Virus record (IMG/VR): IMGVR_UViG_3300031746_002572
Origin: an uncultured virus (IMG/VR IMGVR_UViG_3300031746_002572)
Taxonomy: Duplodnaviria > Heunggongvirae > Uroviricota > Caudoviricetes
DNA: 64,000 nucleotides
Reading direction: 5' to 3' (one strand)
Below, one piece after another: positions 6,342 through 57,797 of this stretch. How positions within the stretch are numbered: position 1 is the first letter of the stretch; each line of letters starts with the position of its first letter. Made by a program: the position numbers and the translations under genes. The notes beneath the pieces were generated by a model. It ran no database searches. It saw only the letters and a list, made by a program, of their open reading frames with translations, and was not told the origin of the DNA.

Positions 6342-6383
6342 AGGGTGATATTGAAACGATCACCCATTTATAGGACGTTGGTT
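6329..6383 (+). repeat. attC-like site
   Basis: GGACAAC-A-ATAAAGGGTGAT / ATCACCC-A-TTTAT-AGGAC-GTTGGTT, one bulged base. Confidence 0.85.
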
Positions 6384-6431
6384 GAAAGCCTGCCTAATTA
6401 CGGAGCGGGCGCAAAGAAAGGAAAAATTAAA

Positions 6432-6767
6432 ATGGGAATATATCATAGTACGAATATGATAAATAAAAAAATAAGACCAAAGAAAATAAATCTTAATGAT
6501 TATACTGTTGAACAAGCAACCCACAATTTATCATGCAGACATCAAATAGGCACGAGTGGGTTTGATTATACAATGCCATGTATTGTTTTATGGAAAAAAG
6601 GTAGTAATGCAAAAATAATTGTTTTTGGTGAAAGAGCGTGGGCAAATAAAGATTATAAAAAACACATACGATATGTAAACAGGTACAGTATTAAAATAAA
6701 AGATGCGCCCGCCAATATCGGAACGGCAGGCCATCAACCAACAGAGCAAAGTAAGGCGCAAGGCTAA
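6432..6767 (+). CDS. Cassette hypothetical protein ending DAPANIGTAGHQPTEQSKAQG
   Basis: Start reassigned to the ATG after AAGAAAGG. Confidence 0.7.
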   Translation: MGIYHSTNMINKKIRPKKINLNDYTVEQATHNLSCRHQIGTSGFDYTMPCIVLWKKGSNAKIIVFGERAWANKDYKKHIRYVNRYSIKIKDAPANIGTAGHQPTEQSKAQG

Positions 6768-6806
6768 ATTGCGAAGCGCAACTTCTTACTTTGTCGGACG
6801 TTAGGT
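6736..6806 (+). repeat. attC-like site (same core at 10916-10986 and inverted at 57314-57384)
   Basis: AACCAAC...CAAAGTAAG / CTTACTTTG-TCGGAC-GTTAGGT; inner TTGCG-AAG-CGCAA hairpin. Confidence 0.85.
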
Positions 6807-6811
6807 GCAAT

Positions 6812-7678
6812 ATGGCAAATTTTGAAATTATAGGCGCGGGGCAAGACACGGCGCGTCGTGCGCCGAAGATAAATACAATTACGTGCGGGGATTGTCTCGA
6901 AGTAATGCAAACGATACTGGACAAAAGCGTGGATATGGTGCTTTGTGATTTACCGTATGGTACAACACAATGTAAGTGGGATACGGTCATTCCGTTTGCC
7001 CCTCTTTGGGAGCAGTACGATAGGGTTTGCAGGGGGGCGATTGTCCTAACGGGGAGTGAGCCATTTTCAAGTTTATTGCGCGTGTCTAATTTAGCCCTGT
7101 TCAAATATGATTGGATATGGGAAAAATCAAAGGCGACAGGTCATTTAGATGCTAATCGCCGCCCGTTAAAAAAACATGAAACCATTTCTGTATTTGGCGA
7201 TTTGGGATGTTATAACCCCCAAGGGTTAGTCGTAAAAGATAAGCCTACTATAAGCAAGGGCAATAGGGGAAAGAAAGGCGAGGGAAGTAGCGGGGAATGT
7301 TATGGTTTGGCAAATAAAGACGCGGTGCAGACGCATAGTAATTATCCAAAATCAATCATCCCGTTTAATGTGGATATGAAAGCAGAGTTTCATCCAACTC
7401 AAAAACCCGTAGCCCTGTTTGAATATCTTATTCGCACCTACACAGACGAAGGTGATACCGTTCTTGATAACTGTATCGGCTCAGGAACAACCGCTATTGC
7501 CTGTATCAATACTGGTAGGAATTATATAGGAATTGAAAAAGAAGAGAAATACTGCCGGATAGCAGAAGAGCGCATCCATGCGCTAAGAAGCCCCGCGCAG
7601 GACACTAAGGAAATTTGCCATACAGCACCTAACAGCGCAAGCATGCAAATTGCGCAGGTGGAATTAGATTTATTATAG
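6812..7678 (+). CDS. DNA methyltransferase (N6A/N4C, beta class), cassette-borne
   Basis: GDCLEVM, DLPY, HPTQKPVAL, DNCIGSGTT. Confidence 0.92.
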   Translation: MANFEIIGAGQDTARRAPKINTITCGDCLEVMQTILDKSVDMVLCDLPYGTTQCKWDTVIPFAPLWEQYDRVCRGAIVLTGSEPFSSLLRVSNLALFKYDWIWEKSKATGHLDANRRPLKKHETISVFGDLGCYNPQGLVVKDKPTISKGNRGKKGEGSSGECYGLANKDAVQTHSNYPKSIIPFNVDMKAEFHPTQKPVALFEYLIRTYTDEGDTVLDNCIGSGTTAIACINTGRNYIGIEKEEKYCRIAEERIHALRSPAQDTKEICHTAPNSASMQIAQVELDLL

Positions 7679-7711
7679 CGCAATCAGCATGCGTTGCGCG
7701 AACTGTTGAAA
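7627..7711 (+). repeat. attC-like site
   Basis: ACCTAAC-A-GCGCAAGCATGC / GCATGC-G-TTGCGC-GAACT-GTT, bulged G; inner ATTGCGC/GCGCAAT. Confidence 0.85.
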
Positions 7712-7752
7712 GCCTGCCTAATTATGGAGCGGGCGCAAAGAAAGGAAATTAA

Positions 7753-7962
7753 ATGCACACAACGACCGGAGAAATAAAACCTTATTCAGAAGTGGAAAAA
7801 CTTTCGCCAAAAGAACAAAAAAACTTTGTAGAAATTAAGAGGGACTTGTCGGAACAGGAAAAAAATATGCGTCATATTATGCTTTACAGCCCGTGTGGCT
7901 GCGGGTCTGGAAAAAAATTTAAATTTTGTTGCCATGCTCATTTTCTTGGGAAAAAACCATAA
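7753..7962 (+). CDS. SEC-C motif protein
   Basis: SPCGCGSGKKFKFCC. Confidence 0.8.
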   Translation: MHTTTGEIKPYSEVEKLSPKEQKNFVEIKRDLSEQEKNMRHIMLYSPCGCGSGKKFKFCCHAHFLGKKP

Positions 7963-8213
7963 TGGACGGACTTCTTGCTGGTATTGGTGAAAAATTATTG
8001 CCATGTCCGATATGCAACGGCAGAGCAAAACGAACAATGGGTAAAAACGGTGGGTACATAGAATGCGTTGAATGCGGATTGCGGACACGGGATTGCAGAA
8101 AAAACGATAACGAACCAATAGATAACAGGTGGAATAAAAGACATGCGCCCGCAAATATAGGAACGGCAGGCCATCAACCAACTAATAAAGGCCAAAATCA
8201 TGAAGTTGGTTAA
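7962..8213 (+). CDS. Lar-family restriction alleviation-like Zn-ribbon protein
   Basis: LLPCPICNG...IECVECG...RWNKR; ATG overlaps upstream TAA. Confidence 0.65.
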   Translation: MDGLLAGIGEKLLPCPICNGRAKRTMGKNGGYIECVECGLRTRDCRKNDNEPIDNRWNKRHAPANIGTAGHQPTNKGQNHEVG

Positions 8214-8239
8214 AATAAAATTTTGGAGAAACGCTCGCT

Positions 8240-8431
8240 ATGAAATTAAAAATTGAAAAAGATATACAGAAGAAAGACACAATAAAAGAGGATATTAAAA
8301 AAATGGAGATTGGAGATTCTTTTGAACTTACAAAGTATAAAACGTGGCCTCATATTGTTGCTAAAGACATCGGAATTGTAATTGTAGGAATAAAAACAGA
8401 AGCAGGTTATAGATACTGGAGAAAAAAATAG
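8240..8431 (+). CDS. Small putative DNA-binding protein
   Basis: MEIGDSF...GYRYWR; SD GGAG. Confidence 0.55.
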   Translation: MKLKIEKDIQKKDTIKEDIKKMEIGDSFELTKYKTWPHIVAKDIGIVIVGIKTEAGYRYWRKK

Positions 8432-8501
8432 GCTCGCTAATTATAAAATCGTGAAAACCAGTTATTGTAGGCGGCGCGGAAAACCAAGAAAGGAAAACAA
8501 T

Positions 8502-8717
8502 ATGACAGTCCTCGAACTGAAAAGAATGCTGGGAAACTATCCTGATGACATGGAAGTAATTGTTGATAGATGCAGCGACTACACCTCCATTGAGGAAGGC
8601 GAGTGGTCAGTAGTGAAGGCTGTCAAAATCAATTACGGGTTTATGCGATCACACAAGACCATGAGCGATGAGAACAAAGCAAACGAGAAAGAGTATCTGC
8701 ATCTTGAAGGAAATTAA
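8502..8717 (+). CDS. Hypothetical protein
   Basis: MTVLELKRMLGNYPDDMEV; SD AAGAAAGG. Confidence 0.7.
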   Translation: MTVLELKRMLGNYPDDMEVIVDRCSDYTSIEEGEWSVVKAVKINYGFMRSHKTMSDENKANEKEYLHLEGN

Positions 8718-8764
8718 GACCGCATTCGCCGCCGACTATATGGTAAGCGCGGCAAGGAGGTTCT

Positions 8765-8983
8765 GTGGATTCTAACCAGGTTGTCAACACGTTCAACGAG
8801 TTGCGCAGCAATATCGAGGCGTGCGACAAGTCAACGCGAAGTATGCTCCCGGTTATTGCTGGACGGTTACAGCGTGCAACTCAGGATTGTTGCCGTGGCG
8901 AATGGTGTCAGGCGTTGACCGCGTTGAAGCGAGAGCTGCGCAACTGGGACATTATGAAGCAGCAGTGGATAGAGCCGCGCTAA
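8765..8983 (+). CDS. Hypothetical protein
   Basis: GTG start after AAGGAGG; flanked by GCGCGGC / GCCGCGC. Confidence 0.65.
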   Translation: MDSNQVVNTFNELRSNIEACDKSTRSMLPVIAGRLQRATQDCCRGEWCQALTALKRELRNWDIMKQQWIEPR

Positions 8984-9015
8984 AATGCGGAGCGGCGCGA
9001 AGAAAGGAAAATAAC

Positions 9016-9408
9016 ATGAGTGCAGATAATTGGACTTATTGCCCACGGTGCGAAGTAAAGGCGGAAACGGATCGTATTGCCTTTGAAGAAAAGGTTAAAA
9101 AATCGTATGGCAAGGTTTCGGCGGAAGAATATTTGCGGCTAACTGACCAACTTAAAAATCCTAAAAGGCTCGAACAAACACTTCGAGAAGATTACGAACT
9201 TGGAACTAATGAAGGATTTTTTAACGTTTCGTATCGAGCAGGTTGTTCAGTATGTAATTTTAGTTTTGAATTTCATGAGGAAAAAAAGATCGCGCCGCAG
9301 AATAATGCGGAAACGGCCAGCACAGACAAACAACAGCCCCATGCTGCGAGGGCGAAGCGCCACATGCCGGGAATACCGGCACGTCAGCATAGCGCGAACG
9401 TTGGTTGA
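9016..9408 (+). CDS. Hypothetical Zn-binding protein
   Basis: MSADNWTYCPRC...CSVC; SD AAGAAAGG; reads through attC-like site. Confidence 0.7.
   Translation: MSADNWTYCPRCEVKAETDRIAFEEKVKKSYGKVSAEEYLRLTDQLKNPKRLEQTLREDYELGTNEGFFNVSYRAGCSVCNFSFEFHEEKKIAPQNNAETASTDKQQPHAARAKRHMPGIPARQHSANVG
9328..9406 (+). repeat. attC-like site
   Basis: AAACAAC...ATGCTG / CAGCAT...GAAC-GTTGGTT; inner hairpins GGCG/CGCC and TGCCGG/CCGGCA. Confidence 0.75.
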
Positions 9409-9491
9409 AATTTCGTTTTGGCTGTACTATGCGGTTATTAGTAAGTGGTGGTTATTAATTTAGGCGGGCGCGACTACAAAAGGAGGAAAGA

Positions 9492-9737
9492 ATGGAAATT
9501 CTTGAAACGATTTTAAAATGGTTCAAACGATGTGCTGAACCAAATTTAAAGCGGAGATATTCAAGTTGTCCGATCTGTGGAGCAACTTGGTGGGACAACA
9601 AGGAACAACATAATCGTGATTGCTGGATACCGGAATTAGAAAATAAATTAAGAGCGCCCGCCAAAGACAAAAACGGGCAAAACGAAACATCAACCAACAG
9701 CCCTATTTTGCAACCGCAGGAACCGACAGCAACATAG
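9492..9737 (+). CDS. Cassette hypothetical protein (CPIC...H..DC)
   Basis: SD AGGAGG. Confidence 0.7.
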   Translation: MEILETILKWFKRCAEPNLKRRYSSCPICGATWWDNKEQHNRDCWIPELENKLRAPAKDKNGQNETSTNSPILQPQEPTAT

Positions 9738-9751
9738 GGCAAACGTTGTAT
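9692..9751 (+). repeat. attC-like site
   Basis: AACCAAC-A-GCCCTAT / ATAGGGC-AAAC-GTTGTAT. Confidence 0.8.
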
Positions 9752-9783
9752 GCCATTTTGCGCGAACATGAAAGGGGCGACAA

Positions 9784-10068
9784 ATGAATATTAAAATTCT
9801 CGATGCTAAAAAAGAGACATATTGGTATTCACGATTTATTGGGTCCGTGTTTGAAGTTACCGGGAAAGACAGTCCTGCTGGTTATTTTGTTCGACATGAT
9901 GGTTTTGATCAGCAGTATGTTGTTGACAAAGCAGATTGTCGCCCCACGACGAAAGGAACGCGCAAAACGGAGAAGCGTAGCACGGGGGCAGTAGCACATA
10001 CAACTGGCGCTATGCTAAAATGCCCTCATTGTGGAAAGGAAATTCGTATCGTAGGCACATCAGCATAG
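9784..10068 (+). CDS. Cassette hypothetical protein
   Basis: SD AAGGGG; C-terminal CPHC encoded in the hairpin loop. Confidence 0.7.
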   Translation: MNIKILDAKKETYWYSRFIGSVFEVTGKDSPAGYFVRHDGFDQQYVVDKADCRPTTKGTRKTEKRSTGAVAHTTGAMLKCPHCGKEIRIVGTSA

Positions 10069-10083
10069 CGCCATACGTTGGTG
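9998..10083 (+). repeat. attC-like site
   Basis: ATACAAC-TGGCGCTATGCT / AGCATAGCGCCA-TAC-GTTGGTG. Confidence 0.85.
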
Positions 10084-10123
10084 TAAAAATCGGCGGGTGG
10101 AATGCGCGCCAAGAAAGGAAATT

Positions 10124-10405
10124 ATGGAAAAAGATAAAGAGCCTTTTGCGTATCAATATGACCATGATAATGGGAACGATTTTATTATAACTCGCGCAAG
10201 TAACAGCAACACGTATTTTGGCAAAGAAGCAAACGATTTAATGTTTGAAATGTATAAAAGGCAAAGGAATAATGATTTTTATCCTAACGAATTTAATAAC
10301 CAGTTATTGATTGAATTGAATAACAGAAAAGAATGGGCGCGCTCAAATAGATATGTTTTGGCCGCCGATTCATCAACCAACAGCCCTTATATGGCGCAAG
10401 GCTAA
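10124..10405 (+). CDS. Cassette hypothetical protein
   Basis: ATG after AAGAAAGG. Confidence 0.65.
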   Translation: MEKDKEPFAYQYDHDNGNDFIITRASNSNTYFGKEANDLMFEMYKRQRNNDFYPNEFNNQLLIELNNRKEWARSNRYVLAADSSTNSPYMAQG

Positions 10406-10439
10406 ATGAGTACACTTCATATAAGGGCATACGTTGGTT
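10375..10439 (+). repeat. attC-like site
   Basis: AACCAAC-A-GCCCTTATATG / CATATAAGGGC-ATAC-GTTGGTT. Confidence 0.85.
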
Positions 10440-10483
10440 GAAAGCCTGCCTAATTACGGAGCGGGCGCAGGAGAATTAAAGAA

Positions 10484-10633
10484 ATGACAAGACTTGAAGA
10501 CATAAAAAAGAATCTGCTTATTAAACACGAATTATCCGTACTGGATATTAATTGGAAATGTTTAAAGCAAGGGGAATTGGGAAAATTGATTTCATGGGAA
10601 ATTAAAAAAGACAAAGGAAGGAAAATAAAATGA
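10484..10633 (+). CDS. Small cassette protein (49 aa, below ORF-track cutoff)
   Basis: SD AGGAG; MTRLEDIKK...; ATGA overlap with next gene. Confidence 0.55.
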   Translation: MTRLEDIKKNLLIKHELSVLDINWKCLKQGELGKLISWEIKKDKGRKIK

Positions 10634-10947
10634 CAAATGAATTAAATTTACGCCAGGATGGATTACCATTATTCCATTCGGAAGACAGATTGTTTTTTGG
10701 CAGAAAAGAAAATGGCGATGTTATCATTATTAAAAAAGGAGTAGATGCTGGGGGTGGTTTTGAAGAGATACTGTTTAAACAAATTATTCCAAACGATATT
10801 TGGTGTTCTGCTGTAGCGTCTGTTTCAAAATTGGGAGAAGAACAGGGGCGATGGTACAAGGCAACGGAATTTCATAACCAAGATGCGCCCGCGAATATCG
10901 GAACGGCAGGCCATCAACCAACAGAGCAAAGTAAGGCGCAAGGCTAA
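10630..10947 (+). CDS. Cassette hypothetical protein ending DAPANIGTAGHQPTEQSKAQG
   Basis: SD AAGGA. Confidence 0.7.
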   Translation: MTNELNLRQDGLPLFHSEDRLFFGRKENGDVIIIKKGVDAGGGFEEILFKQIIPNDIWCSAVASVSKLGEEQGRWYKATEFHNQDAPANIGTAGHQPTEQSKAQG

Positions 10948-10986
10948 ATTGCGAAGCGCAACTTCTTACTTTGTCGGACGTTGTAT
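10916..10986 (+). repeat. attC-like site
   Basis: Identical to 6736-6802 from AACCAAC to GTT. Confidence 0.85.
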
Positions 10987-11028
10987 GAAAGCCGGTTGCG
11001 AAAACCATTTATAGGAGCGGCGCAAATT

Positions 11029-11493
11029 ATGACAGAAAAGGAAATGGAAGAAAAAAATAAAAAGCACCTCGAAAGAGTAAAATTATATGAAAACACAATT
11101 ATTAATAATAAAAACAGGTTGTTTCTGTGTCCGTTTTGTGGAGACTTCCCAATTTTAGAAAGAAACAAACATTCGGGGAGTTTTATAAATATAGAATATC
11201 ATGCGAGATGTGATTGTATGCAAATTTCAACACCTTATTACAGAAATATTGAACTTGTTATAAAAAAATGGAATACCCGCGCCGCAATTGCGGAATCGCC
11301 CGCCATCATACAACAACCGCTTTGTGCTTCGGAGGCCAAATTGCCAAGTTTTGATGAGGTATTTAAAATGGTCAAGCAACATCTTTGTGCTGTTCGTGAT
11401 TCCGGAACTCTTTGGAAAAATATTGGCGATGATGAAATTATAAAAAACACTTATTTAGCTATTGAAAAACTTGGCAACTTCACAAAGTGGTAA
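11029..11493 (+). CDS. Lar-like Zn-ribbon protein with attC-encoded C-terminal extension
   Basis: LCPFCG...ARCDC...KKWNTR; tail ESPAIIQQPLCAS shared with 5771-6100. Confidence 0.6.
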   Translation: MTEKEMEEKNKKHLERVKLYENTIINNKNRLFLCPFCGDFPILERNKHSGSFINIEYHARCDCMQISTPYYRNIELVIKKWNTRAAIAESPAIIQQPLCASEAKLPSFDEVFKMVKQHLCAVRDSGTLWKNIGDDEIIKNTYLAIEKLGNFTKW

Positions 11494-11502
11494 ACGTTAG
11501 CC
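11308..11502 (+). repeat. attC-like site with long coding loop
   Basis: ATACAAC...ACCGCTTTGTG..TTGCCAAGTTTT / AAAACTTGGCAA..CACAAAGTGGT-AAAC-GTTAGCC. Confidence 0.8.
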
Positions 11503-11548
11503 AAAATAAACCGCGCTGAGTTTATAGTTCGGCGGCAATGGAGGAACA

Positions 11549-11821
11549 ATGGATTTGCATGTTTTATTTGGATCGGCCCTCTGCTACACTAAGGAATTTA
11601 CTATAAACGGTGTGGCCGCATCAGACAAGGATTTCGGCGAGAAATATGATCGATCACCCGATGATGCAGAACTGTATGGGTGCGGGGACATGCGGTTTAC
11701 TCGCAAGCCATCTCTCGCCGAAATTCTTTTGAAGTATGCTATAACCGAGGGTGAGTATTCAACCGTTTGTGATAAGTTGGAAGAGGGCCTTTCTTTTGGA
11801 TCGTGCGGATGGTGTGTTTAA
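11549..11821 (+). CDS. Cassette hypothetical protein (C-terminal CGWC)
   Basis: SD GGAGG. Confidence 0.7.
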   Translation: MDLHVLFGSALCYTKEFTINGVAASDKDFGEKYDRSPDDAELYGCGDMRFTRKPSLAEILLKYAITEGEYSTVCDKLEEGLSFGSCGWCV

Positions 11822-11865
11822 TTGTCCGCCGCCGAAAGAAAGATAATCGATGCGCGGTTTACATC

Positions 11866-11926
11866 GGCTAACAGCCAAAGCCGCGCAATGTCAAGGCCCA
11901 CTGCGGGCGTTTGGCGAACGTTGGGC
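11866..11926 (+). repeat. attC-like site
   Basis: GGCTAAC-A-GCCAAAGCC / GGC-G-TTTGGC-GAAC-GTTGGGC. Confidence 0.85.
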
Positions 11927-11984
11927 ACAATTCGCCCGCAATACATGGCCCCATCGTGGGGCCTAAGAATTAAGGAGAGGACAA

Positions 11985-12428
11985 TTGATTAAAAATTACA
12001 CAAGCGGTGTTCCAGCACAAAAAAGCGTTATGAAGATAGAAGAACTTCTGGCAATTCATGGAGCGCAAAGCGTAGTGAAGCAATACGAAAACCAGAAGTT
12101 AATTGCAGTTTCCTTTTTTATGCAGATCACCGGGAAGCTCATCCCATTTCGTCTACCCGCTAGAATATCTCAAGTGGAAAAAGTTTTAAAAGCAGAGGTC
12201 AAAAAACCACACAAGGGGACTCTTGACAGAATCACCGAACAATCGGAAAGAACAGCGTGGAAAATAATTTTGGATTGGGTAGAAGCGCAAATGGCGCTGG
12301 TTGAATTGCAACAGGCGGAAATGGCAGAGATATTCATGCCATATATGTGGAGTGAAAAATTAGGTCAATCTTTTTATCAAATTGCCGTTGAAAAAGGTTT
12401 TAATCTTTTGGAGGCACCAAAGAAATGA
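11985..12428 (+). CDS. Conserved phage-type hypothetical protein
   Basis: TTG start after AAGGAGAGG; IKNYTS...RTAWKIILDWVEAQMA. Confidence 0.7.
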   Translation: MIKNYTSGVPAQKSVMKIEELLAIHGAQSVVKQYENQKLIAVSFFMQITGKLIPFRLPARISQVEKVLKAEVKKPHKGTLDRITEQSERTAWKIILDWVEAQMALVELQQAEMAEIFMPYMWSEKLGQSFYQIAVEKGFNLLEAPKK

Positions 12429-12477
12429 AACATACGCATAGTTGTGGTAAAACCGCGCAAAGAAAGGAGTAACAACA

Positions 12478-12699
12478 TTGAAAAATAAATTTTGGTACAT
12501 AAAAGAAAGACATAATCCGCAATTCAAACAACCGTATTACGTTGCCCTTGGAAACATATCGAAGAAACAAGCAAAAGCGTATGAAAGTTCAATATACGGG
12601 GATAATACCGTTTTTAGCTTCGACTCGGAAGAAAGGTACAGAGAAGAAATTAAGAGATTAAAAAATGCGCGGTTCAACGTACAACAGGCCGCTTTATGA
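12478..12699 (+). CDS. Cassette hypothetical protein
   Basis: TTG start after AAGGAG; flanked by AACCGCGCA / TGCGCGGTT. Confidence 0.65.
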   Translation: MKNKFWYIKERHNPQFKQPYYVALGNISKKQAKAYESSIYGDNTVFSFDSEERYREEIKRLKNARFNVQQAAL

Positions 12700-12839
12700 A
12701 ACTATCGCATCACAAAGCGATGAACGCATGCGGTACGGGGCAAAAGCCCCAAATTGCCGAAGCGTCAACTTCCGCATAGCGAAAACGGTTGAAAGCCTGC
12801 CTAATTACGGAGCGGGCGCAAAGAAAGGAAAATTAAAGA

Positions 12840-13304
12840 ATGGTAACAAATAAAAATTCTCATATTTGGTGCAGGCTTTCTGGCCCAGGCCGTGGGGACT
12901 GTGAACATTTTATCGGATTGCCGGACAAAATAGATGATAGTGCAACCGATGAATATGGTATTCCATTTGGTTGGTGTGAATGGTGCTGGTTAGTTTTTAA
13001 ATTTGAAGAATTAAATAAAGTTTACAAAAATGCAAAGGCTGTCGTACAACATTGGAATGAATTTGGGCCAGAGTATGGACATGAAGAGCATGTTGATAGC
13101 TTGGAAAAGTCAATTAAAAAATACCATGAAGCAATTGGAACTAAAGATGCGCCCGCCAATCTTAGAACGGCAGGCCATCAACCAACAGAGCAAAGTAAGA
13201 CGCAGCCAGAAATTTGCCCTCATTATTTTGAGGCGACCGATGGGGTACATGCTTGCGTGGTAGGTCAATGTGCGTGTCATGGCAACCTATCTGGCGTGCG
13301 GTGA
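12840..13304 (+). CDS. Cassette hypothetical protein containing DAPANLRTAGHQPTEQSK
   Basis: Same leader/trailer shell as 6377, 7705, 10433 and 57725. Confidence 0.7.
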   Translation: MVTNKNSHIWCRLSGPGRGDCEHFIGLPDKIDDSATDEYGIPFGWCEWCWLVFKFEELNKVYKNAKAVVQHWNEFGPEYGHEEHVDSLEKSIKKYHEAIGTKDAPANLRTAGHQPTEQSKTQPEICPHYFEATDGVHACVVGQCACHGNLSGVR

Positions 13305-13323
13305 ACATAAGGAGGCGGCGCAA

Positions 13324-13674
13324 ATGACAAAAACAAAACATCATTTTGGAAGATTAGAATTTAAAAGCAACAACCTAAAGTTACTTGATAAATTAAAACT
13401 ATTTTTTTACCTTTTGTTTAATAAAAAAATTGTGTTTGTAAATATAGAATTGATAGTAGAAAGCGGCATGATAGAAAATGAACTTGCTTTACTTTGTGAA
13501 GTTGCTTCGCCGGGAATGTTTCCAACCACTGTTCTTACATCAAATATTCTTTGCAATTGGCCTCGTGAACGTATTGTAAGATTTGCAAAGCATCTTCTTG
13601 GTGATAAGTGCCAGGAATGCCGCGCTTGTGAAAACAAGGAAGCGATTGCCACAACCGAGGAAAGGAAAACATGA
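13324..13674 (+). CDS. Hypothetical protein
   Basis: ATG after AAGGAGG. Confidence 0.6.
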   Translation: MTKTKHHFGRLEFKSNNLKLLDKLKLFFYLLFNKKIVFVNIELIVESGMIENELALLCEVASPGMFPTTVLTSNILCNWPRERIVRFAKHLLGDKCQECRACENKEAIATTEERKT

Positions 13675-13856
13675 AAATCTCTATTGCCGAACACATACAA
13701 GAAATTGATAGATTAGTAAAGCGATATGGAGTTGAGTTTGATTATTATTCGTGGAACGAAATAAAAACAGCACTACAAACGCGATGTCCAAATTTAATAG
13801 AAGATAAAAACAAAATATGGAGATGTAAAATTATAATTGAAGATGCGCAAAAATAA
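13671..13856 (+). CDS. Hypothetical protein
   Basis: ATGA overlap; SD AAGGA. Confidence 0.6.
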   Translation: MKISIAEHIQEIDRLVKRYGVEFDYYSWNEIKTALQTRCPNLIEDKNKIWRCKIIIEDAQK

Positions 13857-13876
13857 TGAAGTTTGGCATAGATGTT

Positions 13877-13997
13877 TAATAACCGTATGGCGAAGCAAAT
13901 TTGGCAACCAACGGAAATAGGAATTGTACCAGCAATGAACCTATTACTTATAGCCGTTGTCTGGTGTTGCCAAACTTCGCCATACTCTATGTTAATT
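13877..13997 (+). repeat. attC-like site
   Basis: TAATAAC-C-GTATGGCGAAG..TTTGGCAAC / GTTGCCAAA-CTTCGCCATAC-TCTAT-GTT. Confidence 0.8.
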
Positions 13998-14028
13998 GGT
14001 GGAAACACGGCACGAAGGAGGCCGCACA

Positions 14029-14199
14029 ATGAAAAAAACAAAAGACGATATTGAACTTTCGATTCGAGCAGCAAAACTTGGGAAAAAAGTTCTTACCTTG
14101 GTTGCTATTACAGATAAGGGTCTTGCCTTGCTTATATTGAAGGAAATTGCTGAAATATTAAAAGAAACTGAAAAATGGCTAAAATCATGCGCAGCTTAA
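14029..14199 (+). CDS. Last cassette hypothetical protein
   Basis: SD AAGGAGG; followed by trailer and a truncated attC-like site to ~14289. Confidence 0.6.
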   Translation: MKKTKDDIELSIRAAKLGKKVLTLVAITDKGLALLILKEIAEILKETEKWLKSCAA

Positions 14200-14325
14200 T
14201 TAGATTTTTGGCGTACCGTGCATCCATCAACAAACAAAGTAAGGTGCAGGGCTAAATTGCCGAAGCGTAAACTTCGGCATAGGTTGAATGTTATTAATAG
14301 GTAAAAGAATAATTCAACAGATATT

Positions 14326-48012: not shown

Positions 48013-48044
48013 TCCACGAAAGATCATGAAGGTGGAATTATTTT

Positions 48045-50001: not shown

Positions 50002-50698
50002 AGATGTCATTGGAAAACATAAAAATATACCCGCTGTGATTTGTGGGCATGGACCTTCTTTAAATTTTTATAAAAAAAAGTTTGTAGATTTACAGAATCA
50101 GGGATGGATTAGATACGATTGTAATGATTGGTTTAATTTTATGTCTATACCGCCTACTTATTGGCTCTTTGCAAGCACAGTAGATACGATTAAATCACAG
50201 CAGGATAAAATAACTGCATATAATTCCACGATTTTATACGCAGATAGCGTGGATTTAATGGATAGAGATAAAGTTGATAATATTTTAGTTAATACATTTT
50301 ATTTACCTTATGACCAACGTCATTTTAAAGGTATGCCTTGTGGTGAAAATATTATAGGATGTTGTAAACATATTATCCCTAATCGTCTGACCATTCAAGA
50401 AGAATTGGCTAAATATTCTAAAACTGATATTTTATATGGTGGTTATAATGCAGGTTGCCACATGATAGCATTTGCATTAGTAATGGGGTGTAATCCTATT
50501 TATGTAGCAGGTATTGAATTAGATTATAAATTTGGTTATGCAAGCACAATAGTACGACCTACGGGGTATGATTTATGTAGAGAAGGATGTTTAGAAGATT
50601 TTAAAAAATTTAATATGATTGCTACTGCTTTGGGTTCAAAGATATATCAATTAAATCCTAATTCTACATATAATGAATTTGAATTTATTAAATTATAA
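49985..50698 (+). CDS. Maf/DUF115-like protein
   Basis: VICGHGPSL, ALVMGCNPIYVAGIE. Confidence 0.7.
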   Translation: MKLQFKDVIGKHKNIPAVICGHGPSLNFYKKKFVDLQNQGWIRYDCNDWFNFMSIPPTYWLFASTVDTIKSQQDKITAYNSTILYADSVDLMDRDKVDNILVNTFYLPYDQRHFKGMPCGENIIGCCKHIIPNRLTIQEELAKYSKTDILYGGYNAGCHMIAFALVMGCNPIYVAGIELDYKFGYASTIVRPTGYDLCREGCLEDFKKFNMIATALGSKIYQLNPNSTYNEFEFIKL

Positions 50699-50710
50699 AA
50701 GGAGTAGTAT

Positions 50711-50965
50711 ATGAATGCATATAACAGAGATAACCAACCAAAGTATAGAAAAGATGTAGATTCTTTAAAAATCTCTATTTTGCTTTATATGTTAAAGAAA
50801 GGAAAAGCAACAATGGATAATATCTACACAGACCTTAAATGTGAAGATATAACTATGTATGTTGCTATTCACGAATTAATTAAAGAAAATAGAATATCTG
50901 GTGAAAGCCTTTATGAATCAGATAAACAAGATCATAGAGATTTCATATATAAAGTTAAATTATAA
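50711..50965 (+). CDS. Winged-helix-like small protein
   Basis: ILLYMLKKGKATMDNIY..L; SD AAGGAG. Confidence 0.5.
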   Translation: MNAYNRDNQPKYRKDVDSLKISILLYMLKKGKATMDNIYTDLKCEDITMYVAIHELIKENRISGESLYESDKQDHRDFIYKVKL

Positions 50966-50979
50966 ACGAAAGGATATTT

Positions 50980-51900
50980 ATGAAAAAAAGCATCCTTGTT
51001 ACCGGTGGTAATGGTTTACTCGCAAGTAATCTAAAAAATATAATGCCAGATGCAAAATATGTAGATATTGATAGTTATAATTTATGTTTTCAACGTGATG
51101 TGGAAAGAATATTTTATCACGATCATTTTCATACGGTTGTTCATTTAGCCGCAAGAGTAGGAGGCATAAAAGATAACATGGAAAAACCAGTGCAATTTTT
51201 AGAAGATAATATTTTAATGAATACCAATGTATTGCAAACGGCTTATGAATGCGGGGTTCAAAGATTTATTGGTATGGCTTCTACGTGTATATTTCCAGAT
51301 AATAGTCTTAATCCAGATTTTAAATATCCTTTGGTGGAGGAAAATTTAATTGAAGGAATGCCGGAAAAAACAAACATATATTATGCCTATGCAAAACGTT
51401 GTATGGCAATGCAAATAAATGCTTATAATGAACAATATAAAACAAAATATTGCTATTTGATTCCTGGTAATATGATAGGTATGGGCGACCATAGTAAGGG
51501 AAATAAAATGCACTTTGCTACAGCTCTTATCTATAAAATCGTACAGGCACAAAAAGAAGGCAAAAAAGAGATACGGCTATTCGGCACAGGAAAACCATTA
51601 AGACAGTTTGTAGATGCTATGGACGTGGCTAAAGTAATAAAAATAATGATAGATAGAGATATTATGAACAACTTTAATGTAGTTCCAAATGAAAATTTAT
51701 CTATTAACGAAATCGCGTTAAAAGCGTTAAAAGTTTGTGGTGCCGAAGATTTTAATATAATTTATGAGACAGGGCCAGATGGTATATATAGAAAAGACGC
51801 GAGTAATGAAAAACTTAAAAAATTTATTCCTGATTTTAAATTTACGCCTTTAGAAGAGAGTATAAAAAAAGTTTATGAATGGATAAAAAATAATGGCTGA
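50980..51900 (+). CDS. fcl: GDP-L-fucose synthase
   Basis: TGGNGL, HLAARVGGI, STCIFP, YAYAKR, GTGKPLRQF. Confidence 0.9.
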   Translation: MKKSILVTGGNGLLASNLKNIMPDAKYVDIDSYNLCFQRDVERIFYHDHFHTVVHLAARVGGIKDNMEKPVQFLEDNILMNTNVLQTAYECGVQRFIGMASTCIFPDNSLNPDFKYPLVEENLIEGMPEKTNIYYAYAKRCMAMQINAYNEQYKTKYCYLIPGNMIGMGDHSKGNKMHFATALIYKIVQAQKEGKKEIRLFGTGKPLRQFVDAMDVAKVIKIMIDRDIMNNFNVVPNENLSINEIALKALKVCGAEDFNIIYETGPDGIYRKDASNEKLKKFIPDFKFTPLEESIKKVYEWIKNNG

Positions 51901-52040
51901 AATAATAAGACAAGAAACTAAAATTTTTAGAGATTTAGAAACCGGTATTATTTTAAATATACAAGGCGAAATAGCAATAAAATTAACAACAGAAGAAAAT
52001 AATAATTTGATGAAAGCCGTTAATAAATGGAAAAAATTAG

Positions 52041-52952
52041 ATGAAGAAGAAAGTCGCTCATTATAAATTTACTGGTGTTTGCCATGCGCCGGATCAATTA
52101 GTAAAATGTATTAATAAATATAGCGATAGATTTGAAGCCATATTAGTTACTTGTTTACAGGGTTCTGTAGAAACAGATATACATGAATTAATTCCTATTC
52201 AACATATTATTGATTTTAGTAATTTTGACATTGTTCATTTTCATAATAAATATACCCCAACAAATAAACCCGCTTTAATTCAATATCATAGTCCTTCAAA
52301 TTATGTCGATTTAGATTTTAAAGGATTTAAAACCGTAATAGCTCAATATCAGGCTACGTTATGTGATTATAATGACTGTATGGTTGTTAGGAATATTATT
52401 GATTTTGAATCCAAAGAATATAATCAGATTTATGAAGATAATGAAAAAATAAGAATAGGTTTTGCTCCTACGACAAAATTAGAGAGAGGCGATAGGACAA
52501 ATGTAAGTAAAGGTTATATTGAAACCGAAGAAATATTACAAAAGATTTGTAGTAAATATAAGAATGTAGAATATGATTTAATGTATGAAATTCCATTTGA
52601 TGAATGTATTCGTAGAAAATCAAGATGTGATATAATTATAGATGAATGTGTAACAAAAAGTTATCATAGAAATGCGTTAGAAGGTTTGGCTTTAGGTAAA
52701 TTAACAATTTGTTCTTTAGGGTCAGACGTAAAAGATATTTTTAAAAAGATCAGCGGAAGTAGTTATGTTCCTTTGGTTAGTTTATGGATTGAAGAATTAA
52801 CGTATGGATTGGAAAAGATAATTAATAATGGAATTGATTATATTAAAGAACAGGGTAAACATAATAGGATTTGGATGGAAAAATACTGGCATCCTAAACA
52901 AATTGTTAATGAATTTGAATCTATATATATGCAGTTATTGAATATTAAATAA
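52041..52952 (+). CDS. GT-B glycosyltransferase (GT4-like)
   Basis: FAPT...KG, DIIIDE, ALEGLALGK. Confidence 0.7.
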   Translation: MKKKVAHYKFTGVCHAPDQLVKCINKYSDRFEAILVTCLQGSVETDIHELIPIQHIIDFSNFDIVHFHNKYTPTNKPALIQYHSPSNYVDLDFKGFKTVIAQYQATLCDYNDCMVVRNIIDFESKEYNQIYEDNEKIRIGFAPTTKLERGDRTNVSKGYIETEEILQKICSKYKNVEYDLMYEIPFDECIRRKSRCDIIIDECVTKSYHRNALEGLALGKLTICSLGSDVKDIFKKISGSSYVPLVSLWIEELTYGLEKIINNGIDYIKEQGKHNRIWMEKYWHPKQIVNEFESIYMQLLNIK

Positions 52953-55887: not shown

Positions 55888-56066
55888 TTAATTCCTTTTT
55901 TAATAATAGCACTAAATAAATTATAAGTGTGTTCGGTAGTTAATTGTATTGTATTATTTTTTTCTTTTAATATAATATCGCCCGTTTTAGGATTTAAGTA
56001 GGCTATAGGACATTTTTTTTTCCCACAACACAAATGAATAAGACTATAATCTTTACCTATTGTCAT
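55872..56066 (-). CDS. Hypothetical protein
   Basis: Overlaps neighbours in an operon-like run. Confidence 0.55.
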   Translation of the reverse strand: MTIGKDYSLIHLCCGKKKCPIAYLNPKTGDIILKEKNNTIQLTTEHTYNLFSAIIKKGIKWAMK

Positions 56067-56425
56067 AATTTCTCCATTGTTTCGTCAAATTTTTTTTCTG
56101 ATCGTTTCATTATCTGTTCTATTGATAAATTTAATATAGAATCCATAATAATACAACAAAAATTTAAAACTAATGTGTTAATGAACCATTCTAAAAGAAT
56201 TTCGAACCCTTTTACATTCATTATAATAGGGCGAGAAAACAAACATACAATCATTGCAAATTTACCGATAAAACAAAATCTACAAAAGAAAAATTTATGC
56301 CAGAATTTACTTTTTTTATAAAGTTTGATTTGAAAAGAATCAAATATGTGTTGTCCTATAATATATTCTGTTATCATAGATATACAGATAGTATATATAA
56401 TTAAAGCCAAAAAATCAAAACTCAT
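56063..56425 (-). CDS. Membrane protein
   Basis: Hydrophobic segments, CRFC; SD AGGA. Confidence 0.55.
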   Translation of the reverse strand: MSFDFLALIIYTICISMITEYIIGQHIFDSFQIKLYKKSKFWHKFFFCRFCFIGKFAMIVCLFSRPIIMNVKGFEILLEWFINTLVLNFCCIIMDSILNLSIEQIMKRSEKKFDETMEKL

Positions 56426-56460
56426 TTAATTAAAAATATCCTATTTTAATTCTTCTATTC

Positions 56461-56494
56461 TGACTACTCCCACGACTAAAGTCGTGGGGTTCTA
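56461..56494. mobile_element. IS200/IS605-end-like hairpin remnant (may act as terminator)
   Basis: TGACTACT-CCCACGACT-AA-AGTCGTGGG-GTTC. Confidence 0.45.
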
Positions 56495-56744
56495 TTTTAT
56501 TTGGAAACTCAAAATTCATTTTAGCATCATAAATTTGTGCTTTTAATATTTTTGTTTTTCTCATTGCGAGTGTTCCTTCAAAATTTTATTACCGAGTTTT
56601 GCACTTTAGCCGGTTGTACGTTGGTCTGATTTTGAAGCCGCGCATTCATTGGACATTGATATTCCGCGCAATCATAATATTTCAATATTTTGCAAATATT
56701 GTTTTTTGTTAATTCTGGACAAAATTTTCGTAAGTCTTTAAAAT

Positions 56745-57287
56745 TTACTTCCATATTTTTCCTTTCTTTTGTGCCACTCTTAAAATTATTTCGGTATTAC
56801 CTTTATATCCTCGCTGATAATATAAGCAACCAACAGGGAAACCAAAAGCGAATCCATGTTGCTGTCCTCCACCCATGTATAATATTTCTTTCAGACCCCC
56901 GTACTGTTCTACCATTTGCATTATCTTATTGCTCTTTAATGCTTTAGCGACGGGAACAAAAAGAACGATATTATCCGCAACCATAAAACAATGCTCTAAA
57001 AAATTATCGTAAATAGAATATGGTGGGTTAGTCATTATCCAATCAACCTTTTTATTCCACTTAAAAAAATCTATTCCATCCTCTATTTCACAACGATATT
57101 TTGGCTGGTTGAATAAATCGAAAAAAACATTTTTACCTGCGGCTGGTTCTAAAATCGTTCCTTTTGGTTTATACCAACCATAAATAAATTTTGCAGTTTC
57201 TTTTTTTGTCATCACGCTATCTGATGCAGTAGCAACTCCGCTTTTATTTGCTTTTGTTGGTTTTCCTTTTCTGGCGCAAAAATTCAT
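56745..57287 (-). CDS. DNA adenine methyltransferase, cassette-borne
   Basis: ILEPAAG, DFF, TNPPYS. Confidence 0.85.
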   Translation of the reverse strand: MNFCARKGKPTKANKSGVATASDSVMTKKETAKFIYGWYKPKGTILEPAAGKNVFFDLFNQPKYRCEIEDGIDFFKWNKKVDWIMTNPPYSIYDNFLEHCFMVADNIVLFVPVAKALKSNKIMQMVEQYGGLKEILYMGGGQQHGFAFGFPVGCLYYQRGYKGNTEIILRVAQKKGKIWK

Positions 57288-57313
57288 ATTAAAAGTTCCT
57301 CAAATTTTATTTC

Positions 57314-57384
57314 TGCCAACGTATGATAAAGTAAGAAGTTGCGCTTCGCAATTTAGCCTTGCGCCTTACTTTGCTCTGTTGGTT
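57314..57384 (-). repeat. attC-like site
   Basis: - strand AACCAAC-AGAGCAAAGTAAG...CTTACTTT-ATCATAC-GTTGGCA. Confidence 0.85.
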
Positions 57385-57679
57385 GATGGCCTGCCGTTCC
57401 GATATTCGCGGGCGCATGTCCTTGTAAAAATTCCTCAATTGCTTCACGACATTGATTGCATACACTTCTTGCCCTTTCATTGTTCGCGCAATCAAGGGCA
57501 TTCCTTAATAATTCTCTTCCTCTTCTGCCTGATAATCTTTCATGCTCAAATACTTTTGTTGCTTCTTCGGCTTCTAAATTTGCAGCATCCCAAGCTAAAG
57601 ACGCAACCGTTAACCTATGGGCTACTTCTCTCTCAGGACATTCAAAAACCAAAGAGTCTAAATATTCTTTTTTTGTCAT
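57353..57679 (-). CDS. Cassette hypothetical protein ending HAPANIGTAGHQPTEQSKAQG
   Basis: ATG after AGGAG. Confidence 0.7.
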   Translation of the reverse strand: MTKKEYLDSLVFECPEREVAHRLTVASLAWDAANLEAEEATKVFEHERLSGRRGRELLRNALDCANNERARSVCNQCREAIEEFLQGHAPANIGTAGHQPTEQSKAQG

Positions 57680-57725
57680 TCTTCGATTCTCCTGCGCCCG
57701 CTCCGTAATTAGGCAGGCTTTCAAC

Positions 57726-57797
57726 CAACTAGTGATATGTTGTCATTCCCTTATTTAACACTTTATCAACAAACGGTTTAAATTTTTCAGATAATTT
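57726..57797 (-). repeat. 72-bp attI-like array head (inverted copy of 5662-5733)
   Basis: Exact reverse complement. Confidence 0.85.

Follow-up and report, generated by a model that had tools for sequence, protein, structure and literature searches.

Cassette arrays of a large phage in which one self-complementary shell surrounds unrelated genes

The window (the whole stretch of DNA analysed, 64,000 nucleotides, or 64 of the 116 kb of its contig) belongs to a large phage of 28% GC that encodes RecA-like, RuvC, Metallophos/AAA_23 (SbcCD-like), and 5'-3' exonuclease genes. Between 5731 and 14288, a stretch of 40% GC holds an array of about 20 small-gene cassettes, all in one orientation, with ORFs of 34-54% GC (some 28%), and 56.6-57.7 kb is taken up by a second mini-array. 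With an arrow marking the junction, the G of G↓TT falls in the main array at 6103, 6377, 6800, 7705, 8205, 9400, 9745, 10077, 10433, 10980, 11496, 11920, 12440, and 12788, and the stretches at 8.2-9.0 kb and 13.3-14.2 kb are degenerate. The features are as follows, the basis of each being given in brackets:

5662..5733, plus strand: head of the main array, an attI-like site (blastn, 72/72 identity to 57725-57796 on the minus strand)
5731..14288, plus strand: main cassette array (composition, junction list, end pairing, hairpins, array end)
6377..6800, plus strand: shell copy 1 (leader/trailer matches, end pairing, hairpin)
6800..7705, plus strand: cassette of a second shell type (Pfam, PHROGs, end pairing)
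7705..8205, plus strand: shell copy 2 (leader/trailer matches, Pfam and PHROGs, end pairing)
9400..9745, plus strand: cassette of another allele with the same architecture (end pairing, inner stem)
10433..10980, plus strand: shell copy 3 (leader/trailer matches, end pairing, hairpin)
12788..13320, plus strand: shell copy 4 (leader/trailer matches, ORF, array end)
56578..57319, minus strand: probable further cassette material (reading by eye)
57320..57729, minus strand: shell copy 5, first cassette of the second mini-array (leader/trailer matches)
57729..57974, minus strand: gene X, a small protein of 73-81 aa (ORF and homologues)

The 30-nt leader core of the five-copy shell recurs exactly at 6384, 7708, 10440, and 12791 on the plus strand and at 57722-57693 on the minus strand (five matches against 0/100 shuffles), and the 22-nt end of its trailer does so at 6721, 8161, 10901, and 13165 (+) and at 57399-57378 (-) (five against none in shuffles). 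With five exact copies of each around unrelated genes where none is expected, the shell announced by the original prediction is real, and its perfect 9-bp inverted repeat, GCGGGCGCA/TGCGCCCGC, is present in 5/5 copies. The left edge reads GTTGGTTGAAAG in copies 1, 3, and 5 and GTTGAAAG, 4 bases shorter, in copies 2 and 4. Homology was said to end near this inner repeat with the ribosome-binding site partly shared, and indeed the 5' homology stops in the ribosome-binding region just past GCGGGCGCA, where two variants occur (AAGAAAGGAAA in copies 1, 2, and 4; GGAGAAT in copies 3 and 5), while the 3' homology resumes 0-3 nt before TGCGCCCGC. All five cargo ORFs continue through the trailer in the same frame, giving the tail APANIGTAGHQPT.... 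No target-site duplications flank the five copies.

Copy 1 consists of a leader (6377-6413, inner arm 6405-6413), a cargo ORF (6432-6767), a trailer (6704-6742, inner arm 6704-6712), and an attC-like hairpin (6743-6800). Copies 2 and 3 carry two genes each, as had been claimed from the sequence: ORFs 7753-7962 and 7962-8213 in the former, the second with a Lar-like restriction alleviation domain, and ORFs 10484-10632 and 10630-10947 in the latter, the hairpin of which is that of copy 1. After the trailer of copy 2 (inner arm 8144-8152) comes a different, short hairpin; a copy with 86.5% identity to copy 2 follows the methyltransferase cassette in the metagenome contig L002. Copy 4 has an ORF at 12840-13304, and its hairpin gives way after about 18 nt to a further coding stretch. 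Copy 5 has its leader at 57729-57693, cargo ORF at 57679-57353, trailer inner arm at 57416-57408, and hairpin at 57377-57320. The probable cassette material at 56578..57319 comprises a DNA methyltransferase (56745-57287) and a 58-aa ORF (56578-56754) that, by eye, has the ribosome-binding motif of the cassette family and a trailer-like 3' end.

Rather than being a special, pre-formed object, the five-copy shell is one sequence allele of an architecture common to the whole cassette family. A cassette begins at G↓TTR; its opening ~21 nt are reverse-complementary to its own end and base-pair with the final ~21 nt (…YAAC). Further in, just 5' of the ribosome-binding site, lies a GC-rich arm whose pairing partner is at the gene's 3' end, and the attC-like hairpin comes after this partner arm. 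In the window and 10 public contigs (L002-L012), 39 cassettes with 32 unique end pairs were found, against 2.7 in shuffles (counted on both strands, before orientation filtering and de-duplication), and two whole phages, G001 and G005, hold 12 and 4 cassettes against 0 in shuffles. Within the end stem, positions 1-7 and 12-21 are paired and position 11 is A·C in 32/32 pairs. The 33 pairs comprise 17 different 7-mers and 30 different 10-mers, GTTR being the only invariant part of the GTTRRRY box, and cognate ends match at 94% against 29% for non-cognate ones. Inner stems reach 7 nt or more in 39/39 cassettes, compared with 21% of non-cognate pairs, and in 39 cassettes the ends fall exactly at the base of the end stem. 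All stems covary, and this covariation, together with the invariant A·C mismatch, points to recognition of a folded strand.

The same architecture appears with other sequences. The cassette at 6800..7705 encodes an N6/N4 DNA methyltransferase (ORF 6812-7678). A 23-nt stretch of pairing links its ends, GTTAGGTGCAATATGGCAAATTT and AAATTTGCCATACAGCACCTAAC, and includes the start codon; this second shell type, which provides the first ~19 codons of its gene, also surrounds other enzymes, in 9 viral contigs. The cassette at 9400..9745 has ends GTTGGTTGAAATTTCGTTTTG and CAAAACGAAACATCAACCAAC and inner arms GGCGGGCGC and GCGCCCGCC, with compensatory variation relative to the five-copy shell. In the array of a genuine Vibrio integron the long end pairing is missing, and it is thus specific to the phage cassette family. 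Long-range pairing could equally be under selection in RNA.

In integrons and CALINs, an attC site is an imperfect hairpin of the form R''-L''-loop-L'-R', with R' being G↓TTRRRY and R'' RYYYAAC, and is kept in structure more than in sequence. The hairpin of the phage cassettes has attC geometry, with AAC…GTT ends and an asymmetric loop; folded bottom strands present an R stem, then a 3-nt bulge, then an L stem, and the latter shows compensatory changes in 5/6 pairs across 15 aligned sites. It moves together with the upstream cassette, and an Rfam search returned no match for it.

The 14 window junctions read (A/C)(C/G)G↓TTR. At array heads the sequence is TAG↓TTG, seen twice in the window, twice in G001, and also in L001 and G005. 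At the head of the main array, 72 bp reproduce the 3' end of gene X exactly, and the junction, ...CACTAG↓TTG, lies between 5730 and 5731; the first junction takes its G from the stop TAG of gene X, the last ~70 bp of which form the attI-like site. Homologues of gene X lie immediately upstream of arrays in L001 and G001, both arrays of G001 have the same head layout and strong promoter-like sites upstream, and the two-array platform is shared by two unrelated phages. Cassette order differs in other samples; in a short-read assembly it may also be wrong, because the repeats are 50-100 nt long and identical. The cargo/shell junctions are seen again in other samples.

With the shared tail removed, an all-against-all BLASTP of 7 window ORFs and 4 metagenomic tail-bearing proteins yielded no pair at E<1 (three pairs at E 1.3-9.6); the proteins carried in the one shell are unrelated. 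The cargo-proximal breakpoint is the inner stem in 5/5 window copies and in 5/5 further tail-bearing proteins, and in the second shell type it is at CCCCGCGC in 4/4 viral loci with that trailer. The cargo family of copy 1 has 137 homologue clusters without the tail, one cargo family is present in two different shell alleles (P0035), and one cargo has shell-free homologues in phages, which stop at the point where the tail of the shell sets in. Cargo has been replaced repeatedly at the inner stem. Other breakpoints lie within the leader, separating its outer from its inner stem, between trailer and hairpin, and inside genes, and hairpins are at times swapped relative to trailers; examples are a trailer R'' joined to another hairpin (7638->9375), a leader chimera at 7720, and breaks within the methyltransferase gene. 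Because breakpoints occur elsewhere too, ordinary recombination at short conserved blocks is still live for the swapping; breakpoints in leaders and genes and swapped hairpins form a pattern that fits general recombination.

The claim that genes are captured into, or swapped within, a pre-formed shell at the inner stem keeps the breakpoints and the shell-free homologues, but the shell itself is an allele of a family-wide structure, and a search for strictly empty shells found none. The "snapshot of cassette creation" holds only in part, on the strength of recurrent cargo replacement at the inner stem and of the one cargo with shell-free homologues ending at the tail.

The shells are present in phage contigs, and three shell motifs searched against a prokaryote genome collection of 185,579 species gave 0 matches, so that no bacterial integron source is in sight. 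A co-occurring recombinase or reverse transcriptase, also looked for, is not consistently present. Pfam found no tyrosine recombinase or Phage_integrase among the 96 ORFs of the window (64 of the contig's 116 kb), which also holds no transposase, and the complete, array-bearing jumbo phages G001 and G002 lack genes for tyrosine and serine recombinases, reverse transcriptase, and Y1 transposase. PF00589 matched in 1/5 viral records, neither G001 nor G002 among the matches, and PF01797, the Y1 transposase family, in 0/5. In G005, a Xer/IntI-like gene adjoins the array; it scores under every NCBIfam cut-off, including that of the integron integrase (141.9 bits vs. 265). What the visible DNA shows is a family of phage cassettes with no integron integrase, not a bacterial integron.

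As a whole, these observations are best explained, tentatively and with slightly less than even confidence, as mobile gene cassettes of an integron-like, phage-borne system. A circular cassette would consist of one or two genes and one long, imperfect, structure-defined recombination site of ~150 nt. Going from outside to inside, this site would begin with the GC-rich arm of the inner stem, located at the gene's 3' end, and continue through a loop, a stem of 10 bp, and a small bubble containing the fixed A·C mismatch to the 7-bp R box (…YAAC / GTTR…), inside which lie an asymmetric loop and an L stem with a variable tip (the attC-like hairpin). Drawn on the circle, trailer, hairpin, and leader would form a single long recombination-site-like hairpin, cut at G↓TT. 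Strand exchange there, in the 3' R box, would divide the site, ~40 nt becoming the leader with its ribosome-binding site and the remainder the trailer and hairpin; the shell would thus be a divided recombination site. Downstream of a promoter, cassettes would build up head to tail behind the conserved attI-like site that forms the 3' end of gene X, through a structure-specific tyrosine recombinase acting on folded single strands and presumably mostly host-derived. Ordinary phage genes may join by stop-codon fusion to a trailer, and identical shells would surround unrelated genes because cassettes exchange cargo at the ribosome-binding block and at the inner arms, which are short and rich in GC.

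We are somewhat more doubtful about a separate gene-capture system, restricted to phages and working without an integron integrase, that would combine self-complementary shells, array growth behind an attI-like site, and conversion of genes into cassettes at the inner stem. Its shell would comprise the R box, two covarying stems, the fixed A·C mismatch, and the attC-like hairpin, and would supply translation signals and terminal peptides; arrays would extend behind a putative small DNA-binding gene and the attI-like site, and inner-stem fusion would turn ordinary phage genes into cassettes. If so, this would be a new class of mobile element, and no earlier system would have allowed the de novo formation of cassettes to be followed gene by gene, from shell-free relative to cassette.

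It is unlikely, yet worth serious weight, that the conserved blocks are regulatory or fragile sequences, the hairpins break-prone palindromes, and the cassettes shuffled by general recombination (RecA/UvsX-like, RuvC, SbcCD-like, 5'-3' exonuclease) with no site-specific enzyme, as modeled for the PeSL motifs of T4-type phages. The phage has the RecA-like, RuvC, Metallophos/AAA_23, and exonuclease genes, the complete G001 and G002 lack a recombinase, reverse transcriptase, or Y1 transposase, and breakpoints fall at several conserved blocks besides G↓TT (7638->9375, 7720, the methyltransferase gene). The small vocabulary of GC-rich inner arms, in which 21% of non-cognate pairs have 7 nt or more in common, would moreover offer microhomology for cargo swaps, and PeSL shuffling and mini-circles have been described (PMC2839356, PMC4122927). 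However, homology at G↓TT junctions is just 5-7 nt, the ends of 39 cassettes sit exactly at the end-stem base, and the invariant mismatch and covarying stems point instead to folded-strand recognition. Nor are PeSL-type signals enriched: in 5600-14400, promoter-like sites number 26 against 20.9±5.1 in shuffles and terminator-like ones 13 against 9.1±3.0, with none in leaders, under a sigma-70 consensus that may not be the host's; PeSL cassettes were rejected on these counts.

A primary constraint on RNA seems quite improbable: leader and trailer would pair in the transcript into a ~45-nt stem round each cistron, creating an insulated, context-independent expression unit with mobility as a secondary feature. 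Such a stem resembles the RNase III processing stems around rRNAs. The inner arm does lie directly 5' of the conserved ribosome-binding block AAGAAAGGAAA with its partner arm at the ORF end, the G001 arrays lie 3' of strong promoter-like sites, and the ORFs pass through the trailer to a stop codon in the hairpin. Yet what is A·C in the fixed mismatch of the sense strand would be a G·T wobble on the opposite strand, the other stem mismatches are about balanced (4 G·T-type vs. 5 A·C-type) and so give no sign of sense-strand RNA pairing, and a mobile unit ending exactly at GTT/AAC, like the conserved array-head site, is left unexplained. Finally, the imperfect terminal inverted repeats of ~21-45 nt on each unit recall non-autonomous TIR transposons (MITE-like or IS200/IS605-like) served by a transposase encoded elsewhere. 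We consider this very improbable and rejected such elements: the five copies lack target-site duplications, the repeats, in contrast to the sites that transposases bind, vary freely in sequence with pairing alone kept, insertion is always head to tail and into a single type of site, PF01797 is found in 0/5 viral records, and the window has no transposase.

The integron-like reading finds its closest parallel in integron cassettes and in clusters of attC sites without integrase (CALINs), which, with methyltransferase cassettes included, are published for virulent phages (Qi et al. 2023, PMC9892861). As far as these are described there, the resemblance extends to co-oriented arrays of small, mostly unknown genes, an imperfect hairpin after each gene bounded by …AAC and G↓TT…, a cassette start complementary to its own R'' box, stems kept in structure and not in sequence, and DNA methyltransferases among the cargo. 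Unlike in integrons and CALINs, the pairing here runs ~40 nt past the R box into the cassette, where two extra stems covary and one A·C mismatch is fixed; a Vibrio integron array shows nothing of the kind, and cassettes of this type are absent from the published CALIN phage TJE1. A complete integron was rejected, since no IntI adjoins the array among the 96 ORFs of the window (64 of 116 kb); unlike in integrons, the array head is the 3' end of small gene X and not an intI/attI pair, the integrase is absent from two complete phage genomes with arrays, and the shell motifs are absent from the prokaryote collection searched. Like PeSLs, which combine a strong sigma-70 promoter and a terminator in T4-type phages (PMC2839356, PMC4122927), the shells are short conserved stem-loop motifs between small accessory genes of hyperplastic phage regions in which unrelated ORFs are swapped; unlike PeSLs, going by those descriptions, each unit pairs end to end and joins at G↓TT.

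The cassettes also share with pdif modules gene units chained in arrays between inversely oriented sites. In Acinetobacter plasmids, pdif (Xer) modules place genes between such sites, conserved 28-bp XerC/XerD binding sequences with XerC and XerD arms around a 6-bp spacer, for a host recombinase; Xer/dif modules were rejected here, as the arms vary freely (17 7-mers and 30 10-mers in 33 pairs) and pairing alone is kept. In sedentary chromosomal integrons, one near-identical attC site of ~120-150 nt (the Vibrio cholerae repeats) stands on many unrelated genes, and such homogeneous sites are the classical puzzle from which the question of cassette origin springs. The phage cassettes likewise attach a near-identical site of this length to many unrelated genes; unlike in the Vibrio cholerae repeats, crossover takes place ~40 nt into the site, which therefore brackets the gene and provides it with a ribosome-binding site and a translated C-terminal tail. 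The same wrapper around unrelated genes thus makes the old question of cassette origin accessible to direct study.

The core of the leader and the end of the trailer were each found five times without mismatch in the window, and not once in 100 shuffles, at the places where the original prediction had put one shell around five unrelated cargoes.

Features of the window named in the text
6377, plus strand: shell copy 1
7705, plus strand: shell copy 2
10433, plus strand: shell copy 3
12788, plus strand: shell copy 4
57729, minus strand: shell copy 5
6800..7705, plus strand: cassette of a second, methyltransferase-type shell, with an N6/N4 DNA methyltransferase ORF at 6812-7678
57729..57974, minus strand: gene X, a small protein gene whose 3' end is an attI-like array-head site

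Read side by side, copies 1, 3, and 5 have GTTGGTTGAAAG as their left edge and copies 2 and 4 have GTTGAAAG, and all five carry GCGGGCGCA directly 5' of the purine-rich ribosome-binding block and TGCGCCCGC at the 3' end of the coding region. The trailer is translated in one frame by all five cargo ORFs, the stop codon lying in the loop of the next hairpin, so that the cargo proteins end in a common tail, APANIGTAGHQPTEQSKAQG. Without this tail they are unrelated: an all-against-all BLASTP of 11 proteins gave no pair with E<1. GC content ranges from 28 to 54% in the cargoes and is 57% in the leader and 60% in the trailer. At least nine unrelated cargoes occur within this shell; the cargoes of the window that could be named are one N6/N4 methyltransferase and two Lar-like restriction-alleviation domains. 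The observation behind the original prediction is confirmed and generalizes, its interpretation being partly right. The idea that the tail works as a peptide tag was set aside, as it leaves the DNA-level identity and the pairing described below unexplained.

The two ends of a cassette pair with each other. Between the leader and trailer of the shell, GTTGGTTGA pairs with TCAACCAAC, GCCTGCC with GGCAGGC, and GCGGGCGCA with TGCGCCCGC; in the methyltransferase cassette, 23 nt at 6800-6822 pair with 7611-7633; and generally the first bases of a cassette are the reverse complement of the bases ending in its own …AAC. Since the cassette ends are mutually complementary, leader and trailer are two arms of one structure: when the cassette is drawn as a circle, trailer, hairpin, and leader join into a single long, imperfect hairpin, the G|TT junction falling midway along its 3' arm. 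The inter-ORF imperfect hairpins start with …YAAC-AG and end with …(C)RAAC-G|TTR, and 15 aligned sites, taken from four viral contigs as well as the window, revealed compensatory changes in five of the six predicted pairs of the L stem.

A scan for such end pairing (20 nt, at most 4 mismatches) over the window and contigs L002-L012 identified 39 cassettes with 32 unique end pairs, the shuffle figure being 2.7 when counted on both strands, with hits neither filtered by orientation nor de-duplicated. The scan allows no gaps, and copies 2 and 4 do not pass it, being four bases short. Positions 1-7 and 12-21 are paired in 29-32 of the 32 end pairs, position 11 opposes a leader A to a trailer C in all 32, position 10 is mismatched in 24 (A·A-type in 23), and position 8 in 15. 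The paired 10-mers are highly diverse (30 distinct among 33) and match at 94% between cognate ends versus 29% between non-cognate ones, the cognate value being partly imposed by the scan, so that the weight of the pairing evidence lies in the excess over shuffles and in the placement of hits at cassette boundaries. An inner stem with 7 nt or more of perfect pairing, at a fixed offset, is present in 39/39 cassettes versus 21% of non-cognate pairs.

The arrays also share a platform at their head. The main array of the window lies directly 3' of 72 bp that repeat the 3' end of gene X exactly. A second mini-array, which opens with shell copy 5, is headed by the entire gene X (57729-57974, minus strand). 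The complete 253-kb phage G001 (33.5% GC) likewise has two arrays, one headed by a homologue of gene X with a promoter-like site (TTGACA-17-TATATT), the other by a ~37-nt copy of the 3' end of this homologue, behind another such promoter-like site. On L001, a contig of 57% GC, a homologue 49% identical to gene X ends in TAG|TTGGTTGAAAG, and the leader that follows is identical over the 36 bases visible up to the contig end. The three gene-X ends have in common the motif GTTRRAYA-AGGGAATGRCA…TAG|TTG. The gene X family comprises 26 homologue clusters, none of them named; its presence in one of nine viral records searched indicates that it is not universal, and a gene X pattern search found no match in viral or genome contigs. 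The fold model of gene X (mean pLDDT 76.8) has three helices, and Foldseek gave no match in the PDB at E<=0.001, NikR (rank 9) and VapB (rank 16) being weak, so that a putative ribbon-helix-helix assignment comes from the sequence pattern only. Two database proteins, P0004 (a tail-bearing 66-aa cargo) and P0012 (a gene X homologue), each sit on a 4,922-base contig of the same source type; this is probably one contig, which would add a gene X and shell pair. The array of another phage, G005, starts 30 nt after a gene for a 279-aa Xer/IntI-like recombinase, which scores below all family cut-offs and has no close relative in viral contigs besides itself.

For cargo 1, an exhaustive search returned 137 clusters at E<=0.001, nearly all aligning to query residues ~20-88 only (P0004 aligns to the tail only). 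These homologues stop 3-15 residues past a conserved RIRYV block, where the window protein runs into the tail, and P0035, a database protein 64% identical to cargo 1, has a different tail, resembling those of two other window cassettes. At 11 loci of cargo 1 homologues in viral and MAG contigs (30-67% GC; two pairs are duplicates), gene packing was ordinary and tight, and no such cassette was found within 2.5 kb of any. Together, the homologue ends, the P0035 tail, and the cassette-free loci suggest that a normal phage gene family became cassette cargo; judging from the sequences, it would have entered the cassette format via stop-codon fusion and appears to have moved between shell alleles. 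The pattern is the same for a Lar-like cargo: by residue 60 its Pfam domain has been covered in full (profile 1-57 of 58), and the tail begins at residue 62. Shell-free homologues, which the original prediction had proposed to look for, exist for cargo 1, with native ends where the shell tail begins. Of the idea that genes are captured into, or swapped within, a pre-formed shell, exchange of cargo and its capture at the inner stem stand, but the shell is no unique pre-formed vessel, and no creation event was caught in the act. Two much longer hairpins of the window (5958-6109, 152 nt; 11306-11502, 197 nt) have stems in common and are translated as part of upstream ORFs (…ESPAI(P/I)QQPLCAS…), a tail type also found on P0035.

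The leader of the five-copy shell was recovered in three metagenome contigs and its tail on four further unrelated proteins and an 88% identical homologue of cargo 1; a 30-mer of this leader had no match in viral contigs, the trailer none in genome contigs, and the two-allele hairpin motif none in either collection. The leader of the methyltransferase cassette is present in nine viral contigs (39-49% GC) and in no prokaryote genome contig, and the second shell encloses there N6/N4 methyltransferases, one C5 methyltransferase, and one Mom protein, that is, three DNA-modification enzyme families. Its leaders are common through …GCGCCGAA in 7/9 loci, and its trailers start at CCCCGCGC in all four loci having one. 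At 6812-6870 of the window and its equivalents in L004-L012, the start codon and first ~19 codons (MANxEIIGAGQDTxRxAPK) are second-shell sequence, fused in frame to the N6/N4 methyltransferase, C5 methyltransferase, or Mom.

Pieces of the array were also found in contigs of four other sediment studies (runs X2-X5, where uncovered parts are not informative on absence), the best-covered bins being the ends of the methyltransferase-type shell. At loose ends in these contigs, the first 19 codons of the shell continue in frame into other DPPW-type methyltransferases; cassette J occurs in a different order, one trailer is joined to another hairpin, and one leader is a chimera, joined between outer and inner part. 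On contig L003 (1913-2400), an attC-like hairpin and the leader of the five-copy shell are followed by a different small gene, without trailer: half a shell, continuing into ordinary phage genes. Strictly empty shells, which the original prediction had also proposed to look for, did not turn up, the smallest (155-170 nt, G001) holding a 37-codon ORF or non-coding filler. The nearest to empty are two tiny minus-strand cassettes of G001 (13604-13773, 170 nt; 15583-15737, 155 nt), which have outer stem and hairpin in common and differ in inner stem and ~70-90 nt of filling; the 37-codon ORF is the sole content of one, and their cargo may be non-coding.

The window belongs to a 116-kb contig from a large phage, with genes for DnaE-type polymerase, DnaB, primase, RecA-like, RuvC, SbcCD-like, UDG, and sugar-biosynthesis proteins and methyltransferases; the phage has 28% GC and the 6-14 kb stretch 39-43%. 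Megablast with the array and replication region found no near relative among GenBank phages, the flanking helicase and DnaC-like proteins had no related loci in viral contigs, and Rfam and tRNA scans of the window gave no match. CRISPR, DGR, retron, and intron readings were dropped, no defining feature of any being visible by eye. The gene at 19869-23471 encodes a 1200-aa DnaE-type DNA polymerase III alpha subunit (PHP, NTPase, finger, and HhH domains) and adjoins DnaB-like and primase genes. A long stretch of sugar-modification genes at 37462-52952 (NeuB, CMP-sugar cytidylyltransferase, class IV aminotransferase, radical SAM/SPASM, several glycosyltransferases, epimerase, methyltransferases) may be for the synthesis of nonulosonic acid or for glycosylation of DNA or virion. 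Both GC skew and gene orientation change sign at ~56000, each array being co-oriented with the genes of its side.

The structure and its covariation, the junctions, the platform, cassette re-ordering, and cargo replacement are matters of direct comparison; for the underlying process, attC logic, with its recombination of folded single strands, serves as an analogue. By this likeness, a structure-specific tyrosine recombinase would act at G|TT on folded single strands. The same enzyme is suggested by published phage attC sites, whose junctions are reported as G|TTRRRY (PMC9892861). The fixed A·C mismatch and the unit ends lying exactly at the stem base point to recognition of the fold. Scattered secondary breakpoints, which the original prediction had taken as the mark of ordinary homologous recombination, are present too, and together with the common GC-rich vocabulary on which the inner arms draw, they argue for cargo swapping via short homologies by general recombination. 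The leader-trailer stem could conceivably act in RNA.

With regard to the putative recombinase, none was found among the 96 window ORFs scanned with Pfam; the tyrosine family was detected in one of five viral records and was absent from the complete phages G001 and G002, and serine recombinase, reverse transcriptase, and Y1 transposase were each detected in none of the five, G001 and G002 included. Of the co-occurring recombinase or reverse transcriptase genes that the original prediction had proposed to look for, a tyrosine recombinase was seen in a single record. Since two complete phages have no such enzyme, recombination would be left to an enzyme of the host, to some unknown enzyme of the phage, or to phage general recombination.

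How a gene joins a recombination site, and hence how integron cassettes originate, is to our knowledge unsolved. Here the site brackets its gene, so that both fusion points can be read and the cassette-origin problem becomes tractable: more than 130 shell-free relative clusters of one cargo mark the point at which the native gene gives way to the shell. Because the cargoes are methyltransferases, Mom, Lar-like proteins, and small zinc-ribbon proteins, our observations suggest a common pool of anti-restriction genes, exchanged among unrelated sediment phages of 28-57% GC. As a design found in nature, the self-contained shell could also be used for portable expression units.

Phage CALINs (PMC9892861) and PeSLs (PMC2839356, PMC4122927) are in print. 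Our literature search returned no account of long self-pairing cassette ends or of a gene-X platform; most subscription journals lay outside its scope, and novelty is unproven. Subjected to the same scan, a genuine, prophage-borne Vibrio integron array gave one match, intragenic and off any cassette boundary, and the published phage CALIN TJE1 had no such cassettes (1 match at <=5 mismatches versus 1.2 in shuffles). The architecture of the shell is common to the whole family of phage cassettes, the shell being their extended, putative recombination site in split form.
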